Assembly: GCA_041484665.1 (NCBI GenBank)
Contig: JBGPIA010000005.1
Span: forward strand, 107,648 to 171,647
Length of the DNA stretch: 64,000 nt
Reading direction: 5' to 3'
From: Candidatus Krumholzibacteriia bacterium
GTDB taxonomy: Bacteria; Krumholzibacteriota; Krumholzibacteriia; JAJRXK01
The notes beneath the pieces were generated by a model that did not search any database, was not told where the DNA came from, and saw only the letters and a list, made by a program, of their open reading frames with translations. Position 1 is the stretch's first letter. Each line of letters opens with the position of its first letter. Made by a program: the position numbers and the translations under genes. Positions 425 through 10,832 of this stretch are shown here, one piece after another.

Positions 425-3400
425 ATGTGGGTGAAGACCACACGCATCACGCTGCTCGTGGCGTTGCTCGTGGCGACCGCCGTGTTGGCGTATCTGGCCG
501 CCAACCCGCACCTGTACGCCGGCCAGATCGGCAAGATGATCAGCCGCAATCTCCTGCAGGACTCGGGGCTCACCCTGTCCTTCCGCACCTTCGAGGGCAA
601 TCCGCTGCGGGACGTGCGCTTCCTGGACGTGACCCTGGTCGGCCGCGGCGGGAACCTCGGGTTTGCCTACGTGAGTTGCGACACCGTACAGGTCTCCTAC
701 GATCCGCGCGCGTTGCTCGCCGGCGAGATCCACGTCAGCCGGCTGGTGGCGTCCTCCCCGCGCCTGGTGCTGCGGCGTGACGCGGCCGCCGGTCATCAGC
801 CCGCCAACCACGAGACCAAACTCCTGGCGCTTCCCACGCTTTGGGACCGGCGCCTCCACGTCGAGCACCTGGAGCTGCGCAATGCCTCGGCCACGGTCAC
901 CTCGTCCTCGGGGCTCCCGCAGGAGCAGATCGCCCGCGTGCACGTCGTGGGCGGTGCCAGGCTGGAGGCCGGCACGCTGCGGGTCGACTTGGCGCGGCTG
1001 CAAGGCCGCTGGGGCTCACGGCACGTGGCGGTGCAGGAGGCGCGGGGCCGCGTGGAGTGGCGCCAAGACGGCATCCACATCGACGGCGCCCACGTGGTGC
1101 TCGACAGCACCGTCGCCGACGTCGACGGCGTGGTCGGGCAGGGCACTCTCGACCTGCGCGTCAAGGGGCAGCCCGTGGTCCTGACCGAGGCCTTCCGGCT
1201 GCTGTCGTTGGGCGCCGTCCCGCGCGCGCTGCTGCGTGGCGAGGCCCACATCATCAAGGCCGACAGCCACAGCGACAGCGTACGTATCCAGGCGTTGGCC
1301 GACGGGCAAATCGCCACCTACCCCTTCCAGCGCGTCCGCTTCAACGCCACCGTGCACGCAACCGGGATGGTCGTGCACCGCGCGCAAGGGACGTTCCTGG
1401 GTGCCGAGGTGGACGGCTCGGGAGACGTCGGCTTCAAGACCTCGGTGCTGTCGATCCGGACCCACATCCGGCAGGCCGACCTGGCCCAGCCGTGGACGGG
1501 CAAGGATCTGCACTGGCCCAGCAGCGATCTCGCGGGACGCCTGAGCCTGACAGTCCATCTGATCCCGCCGGTGGCCGTCGACCTGCGGGTCGACCACGCC
1601 GCCGGCAGCGTGATGCAGCTCCCCATCGACTCGCTGCAGGTCGCCTTGCACTTCGACGACCGGCACGGGCTGGACCTGCACCGGGCGCGCGCAGTCTGCC
1701 TGCAAACCGCGCTGGTGGCGGAGGGCACCGTGGACAGCGCCAACACGGTCGCCATCCTGGTACGCGCTCGCGCCGACGACCTCGGTCCCTGGCAGCGTCG
1801 CTACCACCTGCCCGTCTCCGGCACGGGGCTGGAGATCGCGGGCACCCTCGACGGACCGGCCGCGTCGCCCGGCCTGCACGTGGGCGCGTCGCTGCGCACG
1901 CTCGATGCGTTCGGCTTCTCGGCGTGGGGCGCCCAGGCCGTCGTGGAGCTCGCGCGCTTCGACTCCGCCGACACCCTGCGCGCCAATCTGGTCTCACCCC
2001 GGCTGCAGTACCGCGGCCGGCGCATGGGGTCGCTCGAGTTCGATGTCCGTCGCGCGGCGCCCCTGACCGAGATTCCCGAGCTGCGCCTGGCCATGGGCGA
2101 CACGACGCTGAGCGCATCCGGGCGGATCGCGCAGGGCCAGGACGGCCAGATCCAGGTCGCGCTGGCCGCGCTGCAATTCGGCCTGGGGAAGGAGCTGTGG
2201 AGCCTGTCGCGCCCAGCGACGGCAACGATCGCCGGATCGGCGATCCAGGTCGACGCTGTAGACGTCGTCTCGAGCACCGGACACGTGATGCTCAGCGGCG
2301 GCGTCGACGCGCAGGACCGCCTCTCGCTGCGTCTGGAGCTCGACGACGGGGAGCTCGCGCTACTGCCCCGGCTGGGCTTGGGACCGCACGACCTGCGGGG
2401 TACGATCACCGGTTTGGTGGAGCTGTCCGGCACCCGGGCGCAGCCGGGCTTCACCGCGCGCGTGGAGGTCAAGGACGCGACGGTCGCGCAGCGGCAGTTC
2501 GACCGCGTGCGAGCGGAACTCACGTCGGCGGGCTCGACCCTGACGGCCGACTCGCTGGCCGTCGAGAGCCAGCACGGGCAGCTGCGCGTAGACGGCACCG
2601 TGGAAATGGGCGCTACGACCTGGCTGCGTACGCTCGCCTTCGAGGGGAGCCGCTGGCGAGAGCTGCTCGCGCCCGCCCGCCTGGACCTCCACGTGGCGGC
2701 CGAGCAGATCAATCCGCTCTACTGGTCCCGCCCCGACCGGCCGGATACCAGCTTGGGCTGGCTCAGCACCGACTTGCGGGCCCAGGGCACGGCTCGATCG
2801 CCCCGCGTGCACGGCGAGGTGACGGTCATGAACCTGCACAGCGGGCTCCTGATCGTGCCCGCGGTCACGGGCCAGGTGGAGGCGGACAGCGCTGGCGTGC
2901 GCATCAACAGTGGGAACCTGCTTGCACCGCAAGAGTGGCTCAACTTCTCCGGTCGATTGCCCCTGCGCATCTCCGCCCTGGCCGCTCCCGTCTGGCGTCC
3001 GGAGGACGGCATCCAGCTCAGCGTGAGAACCGCCGAGAACGCTCCGCTCGATCCGCTCGTGAACATCTGGCCACACTTCACCCTGATCGGCGGCACCGGC
3101 AACCTGAGCTTCGACGCCAGCGGCGACCCGCGCGCGCCCACGCTCGAGGGCGAGCTGCATATCCGCAACGGCTCCGTCCAGCTGGAGCGCACGCTGGAGA
3201 AGCTGCGCGAGATCGAAATCGACGCCCACTTCAAGGACAACGTGCTGCGCATCGAGCGTGTAGCCGCCCGCGAGGGCTTGAAGGGCGAGCTGCACGCCCA
3301 AGGCGAGCTGCGCTTCAAGGGCCTGGTGCCCGACGACATTGCGCTGGACATCCAAGCCGACCGCTTCCAGTTCATCTCGGTCCCACGCTTGCTGGCGTTG

Positions 3401-4327
3401 CTGCGCAGCAACGACCTGAAGCTGCGCCTGGTTCGTCCAGTGCCGGGGAGCCCGCGCGCCCCCAAGATCACGGGGCGGGTCGAGGTGATCCAGGCCGAGT
3501 ACACCGGCGAGTTCACCGAGTCGGGCGGCCAGTCTGGCGGTGCCATCGTCGAGACCGACCTCCCGGACTGGCTGGCCGACCTCGACGTCACCACCGCCGG
3601 GCTGGTCGTCATCAACAATCGCGCCTTCGATGTGCGCGTCGAGGGCGACGTGAAGTTCACGCGCGACGAAGGCGGCCTCGGGCTGGCCGGTGTGGTCGAT
3701 GTCCCGTCCGGACGGGTGCCCATCTTCAACAACGACTTCACCATCACCAGCGGGCACCTGACCTTCAACAGCCTCGAGCGGCTCGTGCCGCAGGTCGACA
3801 TCACGGCGGTGACCAACTTGCCCGTCTATGGCGACCAGCGCGAGCTGGACCGCAGACTGGAGAAAGTGACCGTCCAGATGACCGGCAGTCTGGACGAGCC
3901 GAAGGTGAGCTTCTCCAGCGAGAGCGGCTACGACCGTGAGACGATCGTGCGGATGCTGGCCGGCTTCTCCAACGAGGCCGGGCCGCAGCGCACGGCCATC
4001 GCCGATGTGGCTCTCGCCGGCGCGCTCAACCAGCTAGAGCGCCGCCTGGCCAACGACATCGGTCTGATCGACACCTTCGACATCGACACCGAGGGGGGCA
4101 GGGTCCGGACCGCCGGATCCGGCCCCAGCATCGCGGTGGGCAAGTACATCTCGCCCAACTTCTACCTCAAGTACGGGCAGGGATTCTCCGTGAGCGAGCG
4201 CGACGTGTTCCTCGAGTACCAGATCAATCGCCACCTGCTGTTCACCACCGAGTTCAGCCGCCGCCTGCGGGAGACCACCGCGGAGACGCAGTACAACTTC
4301 AACGTGAACTACCGCGTCGAGTACTGA
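425..4327 (+). CDS. tamB: Translocation/assembly module TamB domain protein
   Basis: 1300 aa, N-terminal hydrophobic anchor, beta-rich repeats, C-terminal TamB-like segment (IAVGKYISPNFYLKYGQ, LEYQINRHL); follows an Omp85 gene. Confidence 0.85.
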   Translation: MWVKTTRITLLVALLVATAVLAYLAANPHLYAGQIGKMISRNLLQDSGLTLSFRTFEGNPLRDVRFLDVTLVGRGGNLGFAYVSCDTVQVSYDPRALLAGEIHVSRLVASSPRLVLRRDAAAGHQPANHETKLLALPTLWDRRLHVEHLELRNASATVTSSSGLPQEQIARVHVVGGARLEAGTLRVDLARLQGRWGSRHVAVQEARGRVEWRQDGIHIDGAHVVLDSTVADVDGVVGQGTLDLRVKGQPVVLTEAFRLLSLGAVPRALLRGEAHIIKADSHSDSVRIQALADGQIATYPFQRVRFNATVHATGMVVHRAQGTFLGAEVDGSGDVGFKTSVLSIRTHIRQADLAQPWTGKDLHWPSSDLAGRLSLTVHLIPPVAVDLRVDHAAGSVMQLPIDSLQVALHFDDRHGLDLHRARAVCLQTALVAEGTVDSANTVAILVRARADDLGPWQRRYHLPVSGTGLEIAGTLDGPAASPGLHVGASLRTLDAFGFSAWGAQAVVELARFDSADTLRANLVSPRLQYRGRRMGSLEFDVRRAAPLTEIPELRLAMGDTTLSASGRIAQGQDGQIQVALAALQFGLGKELWSLSRPATATIAGSAIQVDAVDVVSSTGHVMLSGGVDAQDRLSLRLELDDGELALLPRLGLGPHDLRGTITGLVELSGTRAQPGFTARVEVKDATVAQRQFDRVRAELTSAGSTLTADSLAVESQHGQLRVDGTVEMGATTWLRTLAFEGSRWRELLAPARLDLHVAAEQINPLYWSRPDRPDTSLGWLSTDLRAQGTARSPRVHGEVTVMNLHSGLLIVPAVTGQVEADSAGVRINSGNLLAPQEWLNFSGRLPLRISALAAPVWRPEDGIQLSVRTAENAPLDPLVNIWPHFTLIGGTGNLSFDASGDPRAPTLEGELHIRNGSVQLERTLEKLREIEIDAHFKDNVLRIERVAAREGLKGELHAQGELRFKGLVPDDIALDIQADRFQFISVPRLLALLRSNDLKLRLVRPVPGSPRAPKITGRVEVIQAEYTGEFTESGGQSGGAIVETDLPDWLADLDVTTAGLVVINNRAFDVRVEGDVKFTRDEGGLGLAGVVDVPSGRVPIFNNDFTITSGHLTFNSLERLVPQVDITAVTNLPVYGDQRELDRRLEKVTVQMTGSLDEPKVSFSSESGYDRETIVRMLAGFSNEAGPQRTAIADVALAGALNQLERRLANDIGLIDTFDIDTEGGRVRTAGSGPSIAVGKYISPNFYLKYGQGFSVSERDVFLEYQINRHLLFTTEFSRRLRETTAETQYNFNVNYRVEY

Positions 4328-4330
4328 GCG

Positions 4331-4841
4331 CGCCCCTCTCCGGCGCGAGCACCGCACCCAGCGTCCTGCGGCCCCCCGGCCCGCAGCGCAATCGCGCCAA
4401 GCCGCCTTCACTCCGCCGCCACCCGCCCGCAGCAGCACGCCGTTCACGGCCGCCGGCTCCGCCCAGTCTCTCCCGCGACGTCCTCGCCCCGCGGCGACTT
4501 GCTGGTAGCAGCACAACGCTGACGGCCCCTGGCTCCGCACGGTCTGCGAGCGACACTCCGCAGCCCGCCGGCCGATTCCTGGGTTGATCGCCGGCGGGCG
4601 AGGACCGTCGCGAGCGGACCGTGCGGAGTCAGGGGCCTGTGCACGACGTGCTGGAACGGGTCGTTGGCCACGGGGCTGCGGAGTGTCGCGGGAGAGACTG
4701 GGCGGAGCCAGCGGCCTGCGGTCGGCTTGCTCCGATGGGGCGCAGGCCGCCGAGCCGTGGAGGGCTTTGCGGGGATCAGCTGCGGGCCGGGGGGCCGCAG
4801 GACGCTGGGTGCGGGCGGGCGCGGGAGAGGCGGCGATTTTT
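4331..4841. repeat. ~510-bp long imperfect inverted repeat (rod-like hairpin; candidate structured ncRNA)
   Basis: 4352-4387 is the exact reverse complement of 4779-4814 (36 bp); 4448-4479 pairs with 4685-4716 (1 mismatch); 4524-4547 with 4614-4637 (2 G-U); 4563-4572 with 4590-4599; followed by TTTTT at 4837-4841. Confidence 0.9.
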
Positions 4842-4869
4842 GACGCGCACCACCGCACATGTGTACACT
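4840..4869 (+). promoter_or_regulatory. Putative sigma70 promoter TTGACG-N18-TACACT
   Basis: Near-consensus hexamers about 95 bp upstream of ATG 4963; same hexamer pair precedes iscS. Confidence 0.55.
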
Positions 4870-4962
4870 ATCAGTGGTGCGGTTGATTGGGCGAACCCTC
4901 CCCGGAGGGCTCCTGGGCAATCCTGCCGGCAACGGCGCGTCCCCCCCTGCGGAGACCTCACG

Positions 4963-7900
4963 ATGACCTCCCCGCGCTCCTCCCCGCGCTGGCGCTTCGC
5001 GGCGCTGGCAGTGGCGGCAGCTTCCCTGCTCGTCGCCGCCTCGCCACGGGCGCCATGGGCCCAGAGCTTCGGCCGCAACAAGGTGCAGTACCAGAACTTC
5101 GACTGGAGGGTGCTCAGCACCCCCCATTTCGAGATCTTCTTCTACGACGAGGCGGTGGCCGCGCACGCCGCGCTGATTGCCGAGGATGCCTACGTGCGCC
5201 TCAGCAAGGTCTTCCATCACCAACTGTCCAGTCAGATTCCTTTCATCCTCTACGCGTCGCCCAACGACTTCCAACAGACCAACATCAGCGACGAGCTGAT
5301 CGGCGAGGCGACCGGGGGATTCAGCGAGCCGGCCCGCAACCGCATGGTGCTGCCGTACCCCGGGGACAACCCCACCTTCCTGCACGTGATCAACCACGAG
5401 CTGGTGCACGTGTTCATGTTCGACATCGCCTACCACAGCACGGCCAAGGGCGCGGCACGCCGGGCCCTCTTCCCGATTCCGCTGTGGTTCGCCGAGGGTG
5501 CCGCCGAGTGGTTCTCCAGCGGCTGGGACAAGCAGGCGGACATGTGGATCCGGGACGCCACGGTGTACGACTGGCTGGCGCCCCTGCCGTATGTGGGGGG
5601 CGGGTTCCAGGTCTACAAGGAAGGCCAGGCGGCCATGCGCTACCTGGCAAAGACCTACGGCGACGAGAAGGTCGTGGAGCTGTTCAAGAACGTCGGCCGC
5701 ACGCGCGACCTGGGCAAGGCCCTGGAGACGACCATCGGCCTCGATGAGCAGGCCTACTCGGAGCGCTGGGTCAAGGCGATGAAGCAGGAGTACTGGCCGC
5801 TCTACGCCAACAAGCAGGAGCCCGAGACGGTCGGGCGCCGGCTCACCGACCACGAGAAGGAGCGGGCCTATTTCAACCAGCACCCGTGTCTCTCGCCGGA
5901 CGGGCGCTACGTCGCGTTCTTCAGCGATCGCAGTGGGCTGGTAGACCTGTTCCTCATGAACGCGGCCGATGGGACGCTGGTGCGCAAGCTGATCACCGGC
6001 TACAAGAGCAATCGCTTCCTGAGCCTGCACAGCTTCGAGAGCAGCATCGGCTTCTCCGGGTCCGGAGACCGCATCTGCTTCATCGCCAAGAGCGGCCCCC
6101 GCGAGACGCTCTACGTCGTCCGCGTCGACAATGGCAAGGTGGTCAAGAGCATTCCGCTGGGCATGGACATGGCGCGCAGCCCCGCGTGGTCGCCGGCCGC
6201 CGATCTGGTCGTTCTCAGCGGCACGCGCTCGGGCCGCACCGATCTCTACCTGATCGACCTCCACAGCGGCAAGATCGATCGGCTCACCGACGATGCGGCC
6301 GACGAGCTTTCGCCCGCCTGGTATCCCAGCGGCGATCGGGTCCTCTACAGCGCATACCCCGGCGCTACCGCAGACGTGCGCTTCTCCCGCGACGAGCACG
6401 GCATCACGCGGCTGGAGCCCGTGGACTTCGCCAGCGACAAGAACGTGGAGCGCGACGGTCACTCCTACGACCTCTGGTCGATCGACCTCCTCGCCCGCAA
6501 GCCGGAACTGGTGGTGGCTTCGGCCGGCGACGACACAGACCCCGTGGTCGTGGACGACAGCACGATCGTCTTCGTGAGCGATGCGAGCGGCGTCAGCAAC
6601 CTGTACTTCCACGACCTGAAGACCCGCAAGACGCACCGTTTCAGCGACGTGCTCGGCGGCTTGTTCCATCCCACGGTGAGCGCCTCGGCCGACCGACTGA
6701 TCTTCACGGCCTTCAATCAGGGGGGCTTCGACCTCTTCCTGATGGAGAACTTCCGCGCCTACGCCCAGGAGCACCCGTTCGCCGATCCGATCGATCCGAA
6801 GGTGCTGGCAATCGCGTCTGCTGCGGCGGCGCCGGACTCCTCGGATCGGGTGCTCGCGCTGCTCACGCCGCGCACGAGCGCACAGCTGCCCGTCACCGAC
6901 GAAGCGGGTCCGGCACAAGCCGGCCCGGCGTCCGGTGCGGGGCCCGGCCAGACGTCCGGCGCGACGATCGGTGCCCCGACGGGGAGCGCAGCGCCCACGG
7001 AGACAGGCAGCGCACCGACGGCGACGACGGACACCGCGCCACCAGCGGAGGCACAGACCGCGCCGCCTGCAGCCGCTGGCGTGCCGGCCGCTTTGCCCCC
7101 GGGAACGCCAGCCGCCTCCCCCACCGGCGGGGCGGCTCCTGCGGGCACGGCGACGCCGGCCCAGCCGGCGACGGGCGCGGCGACGACTGCCAAGACCGCG
7201 GAGCCGCCCGGCCCGTCCGCGGGCGCCTCACCGGACGCTGCAGGGAACGGGCCGGCGAGCGGCACGGAGGTGGGCGTGCCGGGCGGGCCGCCCGAGCTCG
7301 CGCCCGCTGGTGTCCTCCCGCCGCAGGAGAAGAGCACGCCGGTGCGCCGGCCCATCGGGTCCGTCGAGCGCTACTCGCCGCGCTTCTCCCTGGATCCCAT
7401 CGGTGGCGGAGGCTTCGGTGGGGTCTACTACAGCTCCAGTCTGGGGTTTGCGGTGGCCAACGTGATCAGCTTCAGCGATCTGCTGGGCAACCACCGCATG
7501 CAGTTCCTGGTGAACTTCTACGGCTCGTTCAAGGACAGCGATCTGGCGGCCAGCTACTATTACCTCAAGCGACGCGTCAACTACGGGTTGGGCGTGTTCC
7601 ACTACAGGAACTATATCAACAGCAACTTCACGAGCTTGGGCGAGGTGTTCGAGGGCCCGCGGCTGTTCAGCGAGCGCAACTACGGCATCTTCGGCCTGGC
7701 GAGCATGCCGTTCACCCAGTTCGACCGGGTCGACCTCGAGATGCAGTGGTACACCAGTGACCGGACCTTCTACGCCATCGACGACGCCGGATTCGCCATC
7801 AGCACCGGCAGCAGCACGGCGCAGCTGGTGCAGCCCTCGCTCTCGTTCGTCCACGATACGGCCTTCTACGGCCCGCACGGGCCCGTCACCGGGACACGCT

Positions 7901-8487
7901 GGCTGGTGAGCTTTTCGCCCGCGCTGCCGATCAGCGACAGTAGCGTCAAGCGCACGACCTCCTTCCTGGAGTACCGCCGCTACGTGCATGCCTGGTATCG
8001 CAACAGCTTCGCCTTCCGCCTGGTGGGGGCGACCAGCCGCGGCCCCGATCCGCGCCGCTTCACCGTCGGCGGGCCGTCCACGCTGCGCGGCTTCGACGTG
8101 TTCGACTTCGAGTCGACGGTGCCGGGCACCAAAACCCCGCGGTACGCCAACCTCCTCGGGCGCAACCTGATGCTGATGAACCTCGAGTACCGGTTCCCCC
8201 TGGTGGACTACCTGGTGTTCGGCTGGCCGGGGCGCTTCGGCTTCTCCGGGATCGGGGCCACGGTGTTCTTCGACAGCGGCAGCGCCTTCGACCAGGAGTT
8301 CAACCAGTTCCGGTTCTTCACCAGGGACGGCGGATCCACGCGGCTGGCCGACTTGAACGCCGACTTCGGCTTTGGTATAAGGGCCAACGTGGCGTGGATC
8401 CCCGTGCGGTTCGACTGGGGCTGGAAGACCGACTTCGCGTCGACCGGCAAGCCGCAATTCCACTTCTCGATCGGCCCCGAGTTCTAG
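4963..8487 (+). CDS. Secreted zinc-metalloprotease-like / PD40 beta-propeller / Omp85-barrel fusion protein
   Basis: ATG 4963 after GGAG; signal peptide then AQSFGRNKVQY; HELVH plus PLWFAEG (gluzincin-like); TolB-type repeats (LSPDGRYVAF, PAWSP, PAWYP); barrel motifs LRGF, NLEYRFP, FFDSGSA; ends HFSIGPEF. Confidence 0.8.
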   Translation: MTSPRSSPRWRFAALAVAAASLLVAASPRAPWAQSFGRNKVQYQNFDWRVLSTPHFEIFFYDEAVAAHAALIAEDAYVRLSKVFHHQLSSQIPFILYASPNDFQQTNISDELIGEATGGFSEPARNRMVLPYPGDNPTFLHVINHELVHVFMFDIAYHSTAKGAARRALFPIPLWFAEGAAEWFSSGWDKQADMWIRDATVYDWLAPLPYVGGGFQVYKEGQAAMRYLAKTYGDEKVVELFKNVGRTRDLGKALETTIGLDEQAYSERWVKAMKQEYWPLYANKQEPETVGRRLTDHEKERAYFNQHPCLSPDGRYVAFFSDRSGLVDLFLMNAADGTLVRKLITGYKSNRFLSLHSFESSIGFSGSGDRICFIAKSGPRETLYVVRVDNGKVVKSIPLGMDMARSPAWSPAADLVVLSGTRSGRTDLYLIDLHSGKIDRLTDDAADELSPAWYPSGDRVLYSAYPGATADVRFSRDEHGITRLEPVDFASDKNVERDGHSYDLWSIDLLARKPELVVASAGDDTDPVVVDDSTIVFVSDASGVSNLYFHDLKTRKTHRFSDVLGGLFHPTVSASADRLIFTAFNQGGFDLFLMENFRAYAQEHPFADPIDPKVLAIASAAAAPDSSDRVLALLTPRTSAQLPVTDEAGPAQAGPASGAGPGQTSGATIGAPTGSAAPTETGSAPTATTDTAPPAEAQTAPPAAAGVPAALPPGTPAASPTGGAAPAGTATPAQPATGAATTAKTAEPPGPSAGASPDAAGNGPASGTEVGVPGGPPELAPAGVLPPQEKSTPVRRPIGSVERYSPRFSLDPIGGGGFGGVYYSSSLGFAVANVISFSDLLGNHRMQFLVNFYGSFKDSDLAASYYYLKRRVNYGLGVFHYRNYINSNFTSLGEVFEGPRLFSERNYGIFGLASMPFTQFDRVDLEMQWYTSDRTFYAIDDAGFAISTGSSTAQLVQPSLSFVHDTAFYGPHGPVTGTRWLVSFSPALPISDSSVKRTTSFLEYRRYVHAWYRNSFAFRLVGATSRGPDPRRFTVGGPSTLRGFDVFDFESTVPGTKTPRYANLLGRNLMLMNLEYRFPLVDYLVFGWPGRFGFSGIGATVFFDSGSAFDQEFNQFRFFTRDGGSTRLADLNADFGFGIRANVAWIPVRFDWGWKTDFASTGKPQFHFSIGPEF

Positions 8488-8516
8488 ACCGCTCCCAAGG
8501 CCTCCGGCACCAGCGC

Positions 8517-10832
8517 ATGCTCGACCAGCTCAACCCGCAACAGCGGGAGGCCGTGCTCTGCACCGACGGCCCGCTGCTGCTCATCGCCGGAGCCGGGACC
8601 GGCAAGACGCGGGTGCTCACCACGCGCATCGCCTGGCTCGTGCTCGAGCAGGGCGTGCCGTCCCACCAGGTGCTGGCCTTCACCTTCACGAACAAGGCCG
8701 CGCGCGAGATGCGCGAGCGCGTGGCGCGATTCGTGCCCGAGGCCGCCTCCGCGGTCTGGCTCGGGACGTTCCATGCGACCGGCGCCCGTATCCTGCGCCA
8801 GCACGCCCCCGCCCTGGGCTATCCCCGCGGCTTCACCATCTACGACACCGATGACACGCGGGCGCTGCTGCGGGAGATCCTCGAGGAAGTGAAAGCCGAT
8901 CCGCGGACGCTCCCACCGCGCGCGGCGGCGGCCGCCATCAGTCGCCTGAAGAACGGCACGATCTCGCCGGCGCAGGCGCAGGCGATGGCACTCACGCCCC
9001 CCGACCGCAAACTGGCCGATGTCTACGCCCTGTACGAGCGGCGGCTGCGCGCGTGCGCGGCCATGGACTTCGACGACCTGATCGGCAAGACGGTCGAGCT
9101 GCTGGAGACGCGCGCCGAGGTGCTGGCGACTTACGCCGGCCGATTCCGCTACGTGCTGGTGGACGAGTTCCAGGACACCAATCCACTGCAGCTGGTCCTG
9201 ATCAAGGCCTTGAGCAGCGTCTACGGCAATCTGTTCGCCGTCGGCGACGACGACCAGTCGATCTACTCGTGGCGCGGAGCCACCATCGACAACATGATGC
9301 GCTTCGAGGAGTACTTCCCCGGCGCGCGCGTGATGCGCCTCGAACGCAACTACCGTTCGACAGCCGTGATTCTGCAGGCGGCCAACCATGTGATCGCCCA
9401 CAACCGCCGCCGCCGTGGCAAGAACCTCTGGTGCGACGTGCCGGGAGGCGAGCTGCTCGAGCTGTGGCACGCCTCCGGCGACGAGGAGGAGGGACAGATC
9501 GTCCTGCGCCGGCTGGAGGAGCTGCTGGCCGCCGGCGAATGCGCCCGCAAGGATGCGGTGGTTCTCTACCGCACCAACGCCCAGAGCCGCATTCTGGAGG
9601 ACGCGCTGCGCCGCGCCAGCGTCCCGTACCAGATCGTGGGCGGCGTGCGCTTCTACGAGCGGCGCGAGGTGCGCGACGTGCTCGCGTACTGCAAGTTGAT
9701 CGGCAACTCCGCCGACGCGGTAAGTTTCGCGCGCGTGGTCAACGTGCCCCGCCGCGGGATCGGTAAGACCACCGTCGACCGCCTGGAGGCGGCCGCCCGC
9801 GCGGCGGACGTCGGCCCGTTGGCGATGCTCGCCGACCCCGGCGCGGTGGCGCAGCTGTGCGGCCGCCGCGCCGCCGCTCGCCTGCTGGAGTTCGCGGCGC
9901 TGCTGGGGAGACTGCGGGCCTTGGCCGAGGAGGCGGACGCGGCGGCCGTGCTGGAGCAGCTGCTGGTGGAGACCGGCTATCGAAAGCACCTGACCGACGA
10001 CGATCCGGCGACCGCGCCCGAGCGCCTGGAGAACGTCGACGAGCTGCTGAATGCCGCCCACGCCTTTGCCAGCGAGAGCGACGCAGGGCTGCTGGCCGAT
10101 TTCCTCGAGCAGATCACGCTGCTCTCCGAGGTCGATCAGCTCGACGAGGCCGGCGATCAGGTCACGCTCATGACCATGCACAATGCCAAGGGGTTGGAGT
10201 TCCCCGTGGTATTCGTGGCGGGCTGCGAGGAGGAGCTGCTCCCACACGCCAGCAGCATGGGCGACGACGCGCGGCTGGAGGAGGAGCGCCGGCTGTTCTA
10301 CGTGGCGCTGACGCGGGCGAAGCGCCGCATCGTGCTCACGGCCGCGCGCGTCCGGCGGCGGTTCGGGGTGGTGGAGGGGACCTTGCCCAGCCGTTTCCTG
10401 GCGGAGCTACCCGGCGAATGCGTGATCGAGCTGGGCGAGGTCGAGGCAGCGGCGCCGGGCACGCTTGCGGGCGCCTGCGGCTTCGAGCGCACCGCGTCTG
10501 CCGGGGCGGGGGCCGACCTGTTCAGCGTGGATACCTTTCGCCGCAGCCAGGCGCGCCTGCGCGGCGGACGGCCCGGTGGGCGGACCGGCAGACGTGCCGG
10601 GCTCGGGGACCGGACCGTCACGGGCCATGGATTTCACGACCACGAGCTGAGCCAGGAGGAAGTGCGCTTCGCGCCCGGCATGCGCGTGCGGCACGCGCTG
10701 CTGGGGGAGGGAACCGTGGAGCTGGTCGAGGGTTCCGGCGAGCTGACCAAGCTCACGATCTCCTTCGGCGAGGCGGGGCGCAAGAGGCTGCTGGCCGCCT
10801 ACGCCAGCTTGTCGATCCTCGAGGCGCCCTGA
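8517..10832 (+). CDS. pcrA: ATP-dependent DNA helicase UvrD/PcrA
   Basis: LNPQQREAV, AGAGTGKT, VDEFQDTN, VGDDDQSIY, LERNYRS, MTMHNAKGLEF, EERRLFYVALTRA, C-terminal Tudor-like domain. Confidence 0.92.
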   Translation: MLDQLNPQQREAVLCTDGPLLLIAGAGTGKTRVLTTRIAWLVLEQGVPSHQVLAFTFTNKAAREMRERVARFVPEAASAVWLGTFHATGARILRQHAPALGYPRGFTIYDTDDTRALLREILEEVKADPRTLPPRAAAAAISRLKNGTISPAQAQAMALTPPDRKLADVYALYERRLRACAAMDFDDLIGKTVELLETRAEVLATYAGRFRYVLVDEFQDTNPLQLVLIKALSSVYGNLFAVGDDDQSIYSWRGATIDNMMRFEEYFPGARVMRLERNYRSTAVILQAANHVIAHNRRRRGKNLWCDVPGGELLELWHASGDEEEGQIVLRRLEELLAAGECARKDAVVLYRTNAQSRILEDALRRASVPYQIVGGVRFYERREVRDVLAYCKLIGNSADAVSFARVVNVPRRGIGKTTVDRLEAAARAADVGPLAMLADPGAVAQLCGRRAAARLLEFAALLGRLRALAEEADAAAVLEQLLVETGYRKHLTDDDPATAPERLENVDELLNAAHAFASESDAGLLADFLEQITLLSEVDQLDEAGDQVTLMTMHNAKGLEFPVVFVAGCEEELLPHASSMGDDARLEEERRLFYVALTRAKRRIVLTAARVRRRFGVVEGTLPSRFLAELPGECVIELGEVEAAAPGTLAGACGFERTASAGAGADLFSVDTFRRSQARLRGGRPGGRTGRRAGLGDRTVTGHGFHDHELSQEEVRFAPGMRVRHALLGEGTVELVEGSGELTKLTISFGEAGRKRLLAAYASLSILEAP

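Follow-up and report, generated by a model that had tools for sequence, protein, structure and literature searches.

What is the palindrome of about 510 bp that occupies positions 4331-4841 of a 64,000-nucleotide stretch (the window) of a Candidatus Krumholzibacteriia genome, between a tamB-like gene and the gene that follows it? The source genome comprises 5.45 Mb in 54 contigs and is 93.65% complete, and the tamB stop codon (4327) lies 4 nt ahead of the element. A first-pass annotation, made from the sequence alone, had offered two readings: a large unannotated non-coding RNA or 3' untranslated region (UTR), or a non-autonomous mobile hairpin element. Our analysis favors the second. We put at about 0.62 the probability that the interval is one copy of a dispersed, non-autonomous family of palindromic DNA repeats, akin to the REPINs and to the Rickettsia palindromic elements (RPEs); it is not a unique RNA locus.

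To begin with the fold-back itself, an inverted-repeat search and direct reading recovered every helix that the first-pass annotation had listed. The arms 4352-4403/4763-4814 are 88% complementary over 52 nt and include a perfect 36-bp helix, since direct reading shows 4352-4387 to be the exact reverse complement of 4779-4814. Further inward, 4448-4479/4685-4716 pair at 97% over 32 nt, 4524-4559/4602-4637 at 83% over 36 nt and 4563-4572/4590-4599 at 10/10, and the closing stem 4335-4346/4819-4830 pairs at 92% over 12 nt. The tandem GA at 4548-4549 facing a second GA at 4612-4613, and the run of five T residues after the closing stem (T5, 4837-4841), are also present as the annotation had described them. 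Its suggestion to fold both strands gave a clear outcome: the + strand RNA reaches -417.1 kcal/mol against a shuffle mean of -289.8 (z -18.3, 0/100 shuffles as good), and the - strand reaches -414.5 kcal/mol (z -17.8). Because both strands fold far beyond shuffles, and equally well, the structure is real and strand-symmetric.

A genome search for further copies, which the annotation had also proposed, identifies the interval as a repeat with six dispersed full copies. Its core (query 100-388, about 290 bp) recurs on contigs C22, C3, C6, C2 and C10 at 83-90% identity to the window copy, and at 83-93% among the family copies in the genome. Relaxed scoring extends the alignment of three copies to nearly the whole element, as with the C6 copy over query 1-500 at 74%. 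The genome total comes to six full copies and about four single-unit or partial relatives (Table 1), one of which lies within a heat-shock operon. A genome-wide scan that required 45 nt or more in exact inverted 12-mers returned only the six full-copy loci, and a lower threshold adds very little; long palindromes are therefore not general in this genome. All full copies start 3-33 nt past a stop codon. Four of the six occupy gaps between convergent genes, the window copy has co-directional neighbors and the setting on C10 is unclear; across the loci inspected in this genome, a convergent-gene setting was seen in 5/10. No T run follows the stem in the printed sequences of the other copies. Scanning with motif A, a short sequence, was too unspecific for use and returned 1323 matches.

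Comparison of the six copies divides the element into a conserved center and copy-specific arms. Between-copy identity is about 90% within 48 nt of the apex and 73-88% out to about 128 nt, and beyond about 128 nt it lies at shuffle level (57-64% versus 31-64%). The outer arms are at best weakly similar between the window copy and those on C22 and C6, with the weak similarity of the left arm (4331-4447) falling in the same part of both. Within copies, complementarity is no more than 62-70% between 48 and 88 nt from the apex, and the left junction 4500-4511 belongs to an asymmetric region conserved in all six copies. The core itself consists of two units, an inner one and an outer one interrupted by it. 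The inner unit sits in the terminal loop of an inverted, paralogous outer unit about 80% identical to it, because the outer halves read on the - strand match the inner unit read on the + strand at 42/52 positions (4665-4716) and 40/52 positions (4448-4499). A first MAFFT alignment that mixed both unit types misaligned the 3' halves and was dropped. All six copies share the junctions, so the composite of two units was the thing that was copied. In the window copy the outer arms are mutually complementary (76% over 128 nt, 79.7 bits versus a shuffle maximum of 39.7), and a third nested unit sought in the outermost arms found no support (best z 1.5; 25/300 shuffles as good). The first-pass annotation had taken the patchy conservation as a sign of selection on single-stranded structure; two nested conserved units with copy-specific arms are a simpler cause.

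Relatives of the inner unit occur in other genomes. A 25-base gapped pattern taken from the inner unit found four sites in two metagenome-assembled genomes (MAGs) titled Candidatus Eisenbacteria, along with two chance matches in coding sequence, and seven metagenome stretches, of which five hold clear units and two (L075, L076) weak or partial ones; it had no match in viral contigs. The exact pattern was present in 1/208 genomes of the window's phylum, namely this genome only, and a DNA search with the core in 40 relatives gave nothing but one weak 34-nt match. Neither Eisenbacteria MAG belongs to that set of 208 genomes, so two phyla at the least are represented in the family. We then relied on a covariance model, R1, built from nine units of other organisms and none from this genome. 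In a direct cmsearch R1 recovers 7/7 of this genome's expected inner units, each on the strand predicted for it and with 35.6-43 bits, and the window unit (4512-4646; L001:1685-1819) scores 43 bits (E 2.5e-7) over its full length on the + strand. A prefiltered R1 scan of the same genome, in which 150/6674 candidates were scored, gave 0 matches and is uninformative given the direct 7/7. Elsewhere, R1 detects 25 units in 9/26 relatives of one Eisenbacteria-titled MAG, and matches in at least 2/150 other genomes of the window's own phylum, a lower bound with 20 candidates scored per genome; both were inspected and have the same plan. We found no description of this repeat family in the literature searched, a search that was non-exhaustive.

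Units in other genomes are single hairpins, mostly of about 90-130 nt, present at 1-5 per genome. From the outside inward they consist of a variable outer stem, a symmetric purine-rich internal loop (GNA/GNA), a 6-bp helix, an asymmetric module and a variable terminal loop. In the module, CUCCGCAG... stands opposite ...GCGAGGAC and a GC helix follows inward; in the relatives it reads C-UCC-GCA-GCCCGCGC ... GCGCGGGC-GA-GGA-CAA. The tandem GA replaces the GNA/GNA internal loop in the window unit, and the G212 subfamily, of about 210 nt, also has a tandem GA mismatch. Close inverted pairs are frequent among the units, as in L073:1155-1272(-)/1291-1437(+) with a gap of 18 nt, L091:1501-1620(-)/1652-1768(+) with 31 nt and L077:3348-3506(-)/3717-3871(+) with 210 nt, and these side-by-side pairs echo the inverted nesting seen in the window.

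Some units lie inside genes. Eight of the 25 R1 matches in the relatives run through coding-like open reading frames. In four species (genomes G041, G216, G212 and G042) a unit sits in frame in the inter-domain linker of CoaBC, and in G041 and G216 another sits in frame in the N-terminal region of a family-4 uracil-DNA glycosylase; the two sets lie on opposite strands relative to the gene. Among the 15 closest coaBC loci, seven are without a unit-like linker insert. The linker of G218 (L052) holds a different insert, a decayed unit in the other orientation, and that of G221 (L050) likewise holds an insert unlike that of the four bearers, with only the flanking peptide GLSLVSQPLWGR in common. 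From these alignments, the permissive CoaBC linker seems to have been hit at least twice. In a CoaBC tree the bearers form two supported pairs, G041+G216 and G212+G042, and the clade of all four is not resolved; a single origin of the four coaBC units is compatible with this tree, not demonstrated by it. Between the sister species G212 and G042 the 14-bp coaBC stem differs by two compensated double changes and one uncompensated change. In G041 the coaBC frame (L027/L046) shifts just past the linker unit (…EEPIDP, then out of frame), which is either a sequencing error or a real frameshift.

Whether such hairpins are maintained as RNA or as DNA should be visible in how their stems vary. In 39 model-aligned units, whose alignment was fitted to the R1 structure and so favours pairing, 92.8% of stem cells are paired against 65.7% in shuffles, both sides have changed in 29/34 stem pairs, and the covariation score is 0.569 against 0.131 in shuffles (0/500 as high) and 0.06-0.14 with partners slid. 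Were the hairpins read from one strand, as an RNA or as a single strand of DNA, G·U should be far better tolerated than A·C. The 1240 stem cells comprise 1117 Watson-Crick pairs, 34 G·T, 28 A·C and 61 others, so that tolerance of G·U far above A·C is not seen. Such near-equal counts imply either that each of the strands counts or that an arm is templated by its partner. The 32-bp helix next to the outer unit in the full copies of this genome behaves in the same way: in five copies (C10 was left out for an indel), 22/32 columns show at least two Watson-Crick pair types and 152/160 cells pair, with left strands only 59% alike. A search with the Rfam 15 covariance models, named as a check by the first-pass annotation, which had seen no hallmark motif of 6S, SRP, RNase P or tmRNA, gave no family match (best MIR1151, 31.2 bits versus a gathering score of 90), and Rfam on four unit-carrying loci returned nothing relevant.

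These data bear directly on the proposal that the hairpins are kept for a job as RNA in cis, be it as bidirectional terminators, as REP-like stabilisers of mRNA 3' ends or as a structured non-coding RNA or 3' UTR, which we regard as unlikely. Position speaks for it, since all full copies begin shortly past a stop codon and four of six fill convergent gaps, as do the T5 directly after the closing stem of the window copy, the extreme stability of the fold and a core more conserved than the covarying stems; in an excerpt of PMC10969869, MITE-type repeats (MITE standing for miniature inverted-repeat transposable element) can form terminator-like structures. The near-equality of G·T and A·C, however, leaves no strand-specific tolerance of wobble, the units lie in both orientations to genes and also within coding regions, the two nested units of this genome face opposite ways, the T run is absent from the printed sequences of the other copies, and no Rfam family matches. 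An intrinsic-terminator scan gave 0 sites, although it allows loops of 3-8 nt only and is blind to a 500-nt hairpin. With both strands folding equally and no fixed orientation to genes, the large non-coding RNA or 3' UTR of the first-pass annotation is not supported, though an RNA role keeps a low probability, and its mobile hairpin is the stronger reading. A chimeric inverted duplication made by the assembler, which the same annotation had named as grounds for rejecting the element, is hardly credible. Long palindromes and repeats are prone to mis-assembly, and no single listed Logan record covers the whole element. Yet the arms are imperfect, with mismatches conserved across six copies, related units appear in unrelated assemblies, and overlapping Logan contigs from 4/4 sediment metagenome runs, which are separate assemblies, tile 3900-5300 with 0 differences and include both junctions between unique arm and core. 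The best-matching of these runs, X1, may be the window's own source sample. None of the 24 runs listed as matching 3900-5300 is an RNA run. Word depth in the core is about 6-7x that of the flanks in X1, X2 and X5 (X1: 85.2 versus 12.2) and about 3-6x in X3, as expected because the core is multi-copy. The one joint in these runs (4506->4665) and the loose ends are no empty site: they match arms of other repeat copies, for example C2:732620-732870.

Two further proposals concern what the repeat is made of and what it is for. One holds that only the two-unit core of about 270 bp was copied and that the outer arms of the window copy (4331-4447/4717-4841, the 36-bp helix included) grew locally, as template switching or fold-back synthesis, seeded at the core hairpin, rewrote one flank as the reverse complement of its counterpart. 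We hold this as a tentative minority view. The loss of between-copy identity past about 128 nt fits it, as does the mutual complementarity of the window's outer arms, and the palindromes reach stop codons on both sides. Hairpins are reported to be both created and maintained by template switching (PMC8794818). The alternative of a core inserting into pre-existing long palindromes was rejected, the genome holding no long palindrome without the core. Against local growth, the window copy and the C22 copy show a weak likeness in their left outer arms, 66% over 116 nt (39.7 bits, a score that the best of 1287 shuffled pairs also reaches), both of these copies open with a similar CGCCCCTCTCC motif just past a TGA stop, and the C6 copy aligns over query 1-500; together these point to a full-length ancestor of about 500 bp for three or more of the copies. 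The other proposal makes the module a resident site for a host protein, either a cruciform-binding or nucleoid protein or a tyrosine recombinase acting on a folded site as at integron attC, with no mobility at all. The attC sites combine a variable terminal structure with conserved unpaired bases, and the units may be likened to them in both respects; asymmetric internal loops conserved across at least two phyla amid varying surroundings, and the low copy number per genome, would suit such a site as well. It is nevertheless improbable, given that positions differ between genomes, include protein linkers of essential genes and vary in presence and absence among orthologues, that the distribution is patchy (9/26 and 2/150), and that units are nested or set in side-by-side inverted pairs.

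We therefore return to the dispersed mobile repeat, which agrees with the six dispersed copies, with units elsewhere at unrelated sites and in both orientations, and with the in-frame cases. Under this reading the core of two units (about 270 bp), along with a varying length of outer arm, would have been copied to six sites, mostly gaps past stop codons. The units would be selfish, non-autonomous mobile DNA, and an enzyme supplied in trans, other than Y1/RAYT, may recognise the asymmetric module folded as a cruciform or single-stranded hairpin. The arms would be kept complementary as DNA, through the copying of good hairpins only or through template switching from arm to arm. The window element is probably a tolerated filler between tamB and the next promoter, and its long hairpin with T5 could also, to judge by its form, stop tamB transcription.

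Several observations weigh against this account. A flanking direct repeat of at least 3 nt was found at 0/38 units versus 2/38 offset controls (the six composite copies have fuzzy ends), in keeping with the first-pass annotation, which had seen no target-site duplication. Y1_Tnp (PF01797) has 0 matches in this genome at its 93.65% completeness, where a control search was positive in 6/14 named genomes; it has none in the nine unit-bearing relatives either, and the 3/26 relatives that do have Y1_Tnp carry no unit. No direct sign of movement was seen, no transposase could be tied to the element, and the four sediment runs hold no empty-site variant of the window locus. The copy number is low for MITEs or REPINs, with six full copies here and 1-5 units per genome elsewhere, and conservation lies in the middle, not at the ends. 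In 4/6 copies the fold of the + strand is slightly better than that of the - strand (e.g., C22, -378 versus -349), which would suit an RNA role, itself given the low likelihood stated above. The contrast between a core at 83-93% identity and adjoining stems at about 59% could reflect host-level selection on each resident copy, and selection on transposability alone does not explain the compensated stem changes that arose in place between G212 and G042. As for a parent insertion sequence (IS), exact and one-mismatch matches to motif B' lie in known copies except C1:496701 (one mismatch) and none flanks a gene-sized insert, in an assembly of 54 contigs where an IS at a contig break could escape.

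The family can be placed among known bacterial palindromic repeats by what it shares with them and where it departs. Like REPINs, it is non-autonomous, extragenic palindromic DNA that forms a long hairpin from two inverted conserved parts, lacks target-site duplications and persists within lineages; REPIN hairpins likewise carry compensatory changes across the stem, in an excerpt of PMC3116915, and compensated changes are abundant here. REPINs, however, are mobilised by RAYT, and we found no Y1/RAYT in this genome or in the nine unit-bearing relatives. They number tens to hundreds of copies against 6-10 per genome here, and they bear their conserved parts at the two ends, whereas here the two inverted paralogous units are nested, one in the loop of the other, not end to end. 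Our units also occur within genes, and 510 bp is several REPIN lengths. A tetranucleotide tag, GTAG or CGTC, marks one end of REP repeats; on inspection by eye, motif A of this genome contains CGTC and the units of other genomes do not.

The RPEs offer another likeness. As described in a portion of PMC10969869, they are palindromic repeats of about 100-150 bp that lie between genes and in frame in unrelated housekeeping genes, where they are translated as an extra peptide, and their mode of movement is unsolved. In-frame insertion in coding genes, translated as an added peptide segment, is seen in the related genomes; the window copy differs in being intergenic and a nested two-unit composite. 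Here the hosts belong to other phyla and are environmental bacteria with high GC, and the likeness is one of described features. MITEs of the Correia/NEMIS kind and the pneumococcal BOX, RUP and SPRITE repeats resemble the family as small non-coding inverted-repeat elements with a preference for intergenic sites and a possible role as terminators. The dispersal in multiple copies is MITE-like too, and the pneumococcal repeats insert into one another (PMC10969869, in part), as two units are nested here. Unlike MITEs, our copies have no conserved terminal inverted repeats: the arms are inverted within copies, the ends are at shuffle level between copies and conservation is central, with no target-site duplication (0/38) and no parent IS found. 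Correction of quasi-palindromes by template switching would yield paired arm changes without selection on RNA and fits the Watson-Crick-only covariation, the near-equal G·T and A·C and the G212/G042 changes, but as a mutational process it gives no account of dispersed copies or of a conserved asymmetric module. On these grounds the family is a bacterial palindromic repeat, set apart by the lack of a RAYT, central conservation, self-nesting, low copy number and its occurrence in other phyla.

Table 1 Features of the element and its neighborhood (window coordinates) and single-unit or partial relatives in the same genome (contig:positions).
Feature	Position	Strand	Remarks
tamB-like gene	425..4327	+	1300 aa; PF04357 TamB, E 1.1e-43
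Outermost left arm	4331..4447	.	Copy-specific; holds 4352-4387, left strand of the perfect 36-bp helix
OUTER unit, 3' half (- strand reading)	4448..4499	-	32-nt stem 4448-4479 and motif A
Motif A	4477-4495		GACGTCCTCGCCCCGCGGC; in OUTER unit 3' half
Left junction, outer-unit terminal loop to inner unit	4500..4511	.	Six-copy alignment
INNER unit, ~135 nt	4512..4646	+	R1 model match
Inner-unit stem	4524-4547/4614-4637
Inner-unit tandem GA/GA mismatch	4548-4549/4612-4613
Inner-unit helix			GCGAC/GTCGC
Inner-unit conserved asymmetric module	4556-4566 ... 4596-4605		CTCCGCAGCCC (4556-4566) ... GGGCGAGGAC (4596-4605)
Inner-unit GC helix	4563-4572/4590-4599		Then apical loop
Right junction, inner unit to outer-unit loop	4647..4664	.
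OUTER unit, 5' half (- strand reading)	4665..4716	-	Motif B' and 32-nt stem 4685-4716
Motif B'	4673-4687		GGGCTGCGGAGTGTC; in OUTER unit 5' half
Outermost right arm	4717..4841	.	Right strand of 36-bp helix 4779-4814, closing stem 4819-4830, T5
Side hairpin	4711-4720/4741-4750		10/10 paired
Promoter-like site TTGACG-18-TACACT	4840..4869	+	Directly 3' of element, overlapping the T run; consensus match only
Downstream gene	4963..8487	+	1174 aa; Pfam Peptidase_MA_2 and PD40
Single-unit/partial relative	C5:78516-78681		Single unit, gap between dnaK-like and dnaJ-like genes
Single-unit/partial relative	C5:94982-95113
Single-unit/partial relative	C2:732620-732870
Single-unit/partial relative (possible)	C14:26177-26303

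Around the element, the promoter-like TTGACG-18-TACACT site was found once against a mean of 0.0 in 50 shuffles, and a short inverted repeat seen by eye around its -10 region (CACCACCGCAC ... GTGGTGCGG, 4840-4880) could be an operator. The first-pass annotation had labelled the downstream gene Omp85; its Pfam domains are Peptidase_MA_2 and PD40 instead, the latter a beta-propeller repeat. Just past the start of this gene, at 4967-4990, lies a perfect 12-nt tandem duplication (CCTCCCCGCGCT x2), which gives the protein four extra residues in its N-terminal region. The next gene (8394-10832) encodes a UvrD/PcrA-type helicase. Elsewhere in the genome, one intergenic stretch at C20:42150-42700 carries about six copies of a perfect 14-bp palindrome, GTTCCACGTGGAAC, mostly about 55-70 bp apart, and looks like a binding-site array of a dimeric regulator, or else like an origin region.

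These results account for a rod-like structure of 510 bp that an annotator might have taken for a large non-coding RNA, and the counts of G·T versus A·C in covarying stems offer a simple way to tell DNA palindromes from RNA structures. Though small, the family spans distant uncultured lineages, sits in essential genes (coaBC) and nests in itself, and like the Rickettsia palindromic elements it poses the question of how hairpins of this kind move. The coaBC copies of G212 and G042 amount to a natural experiment on whether selection or template switching during replication keeps long hairpins paired. It is conceivable, though we would not yet wager on it, that these hairpins form an undescribed superfamily of selfish DNA, marked by a central asymmetric module, insertion into its own loop, in-frame residence in essential genes in either orientation, a range of at least two phyla and the lack of both target-site duplications and Y1/RAYT. 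If true, this would mean a new kind of structure-specific copying of DNA hairpins, with templated repair from arm to arm keeping the stems perfect.

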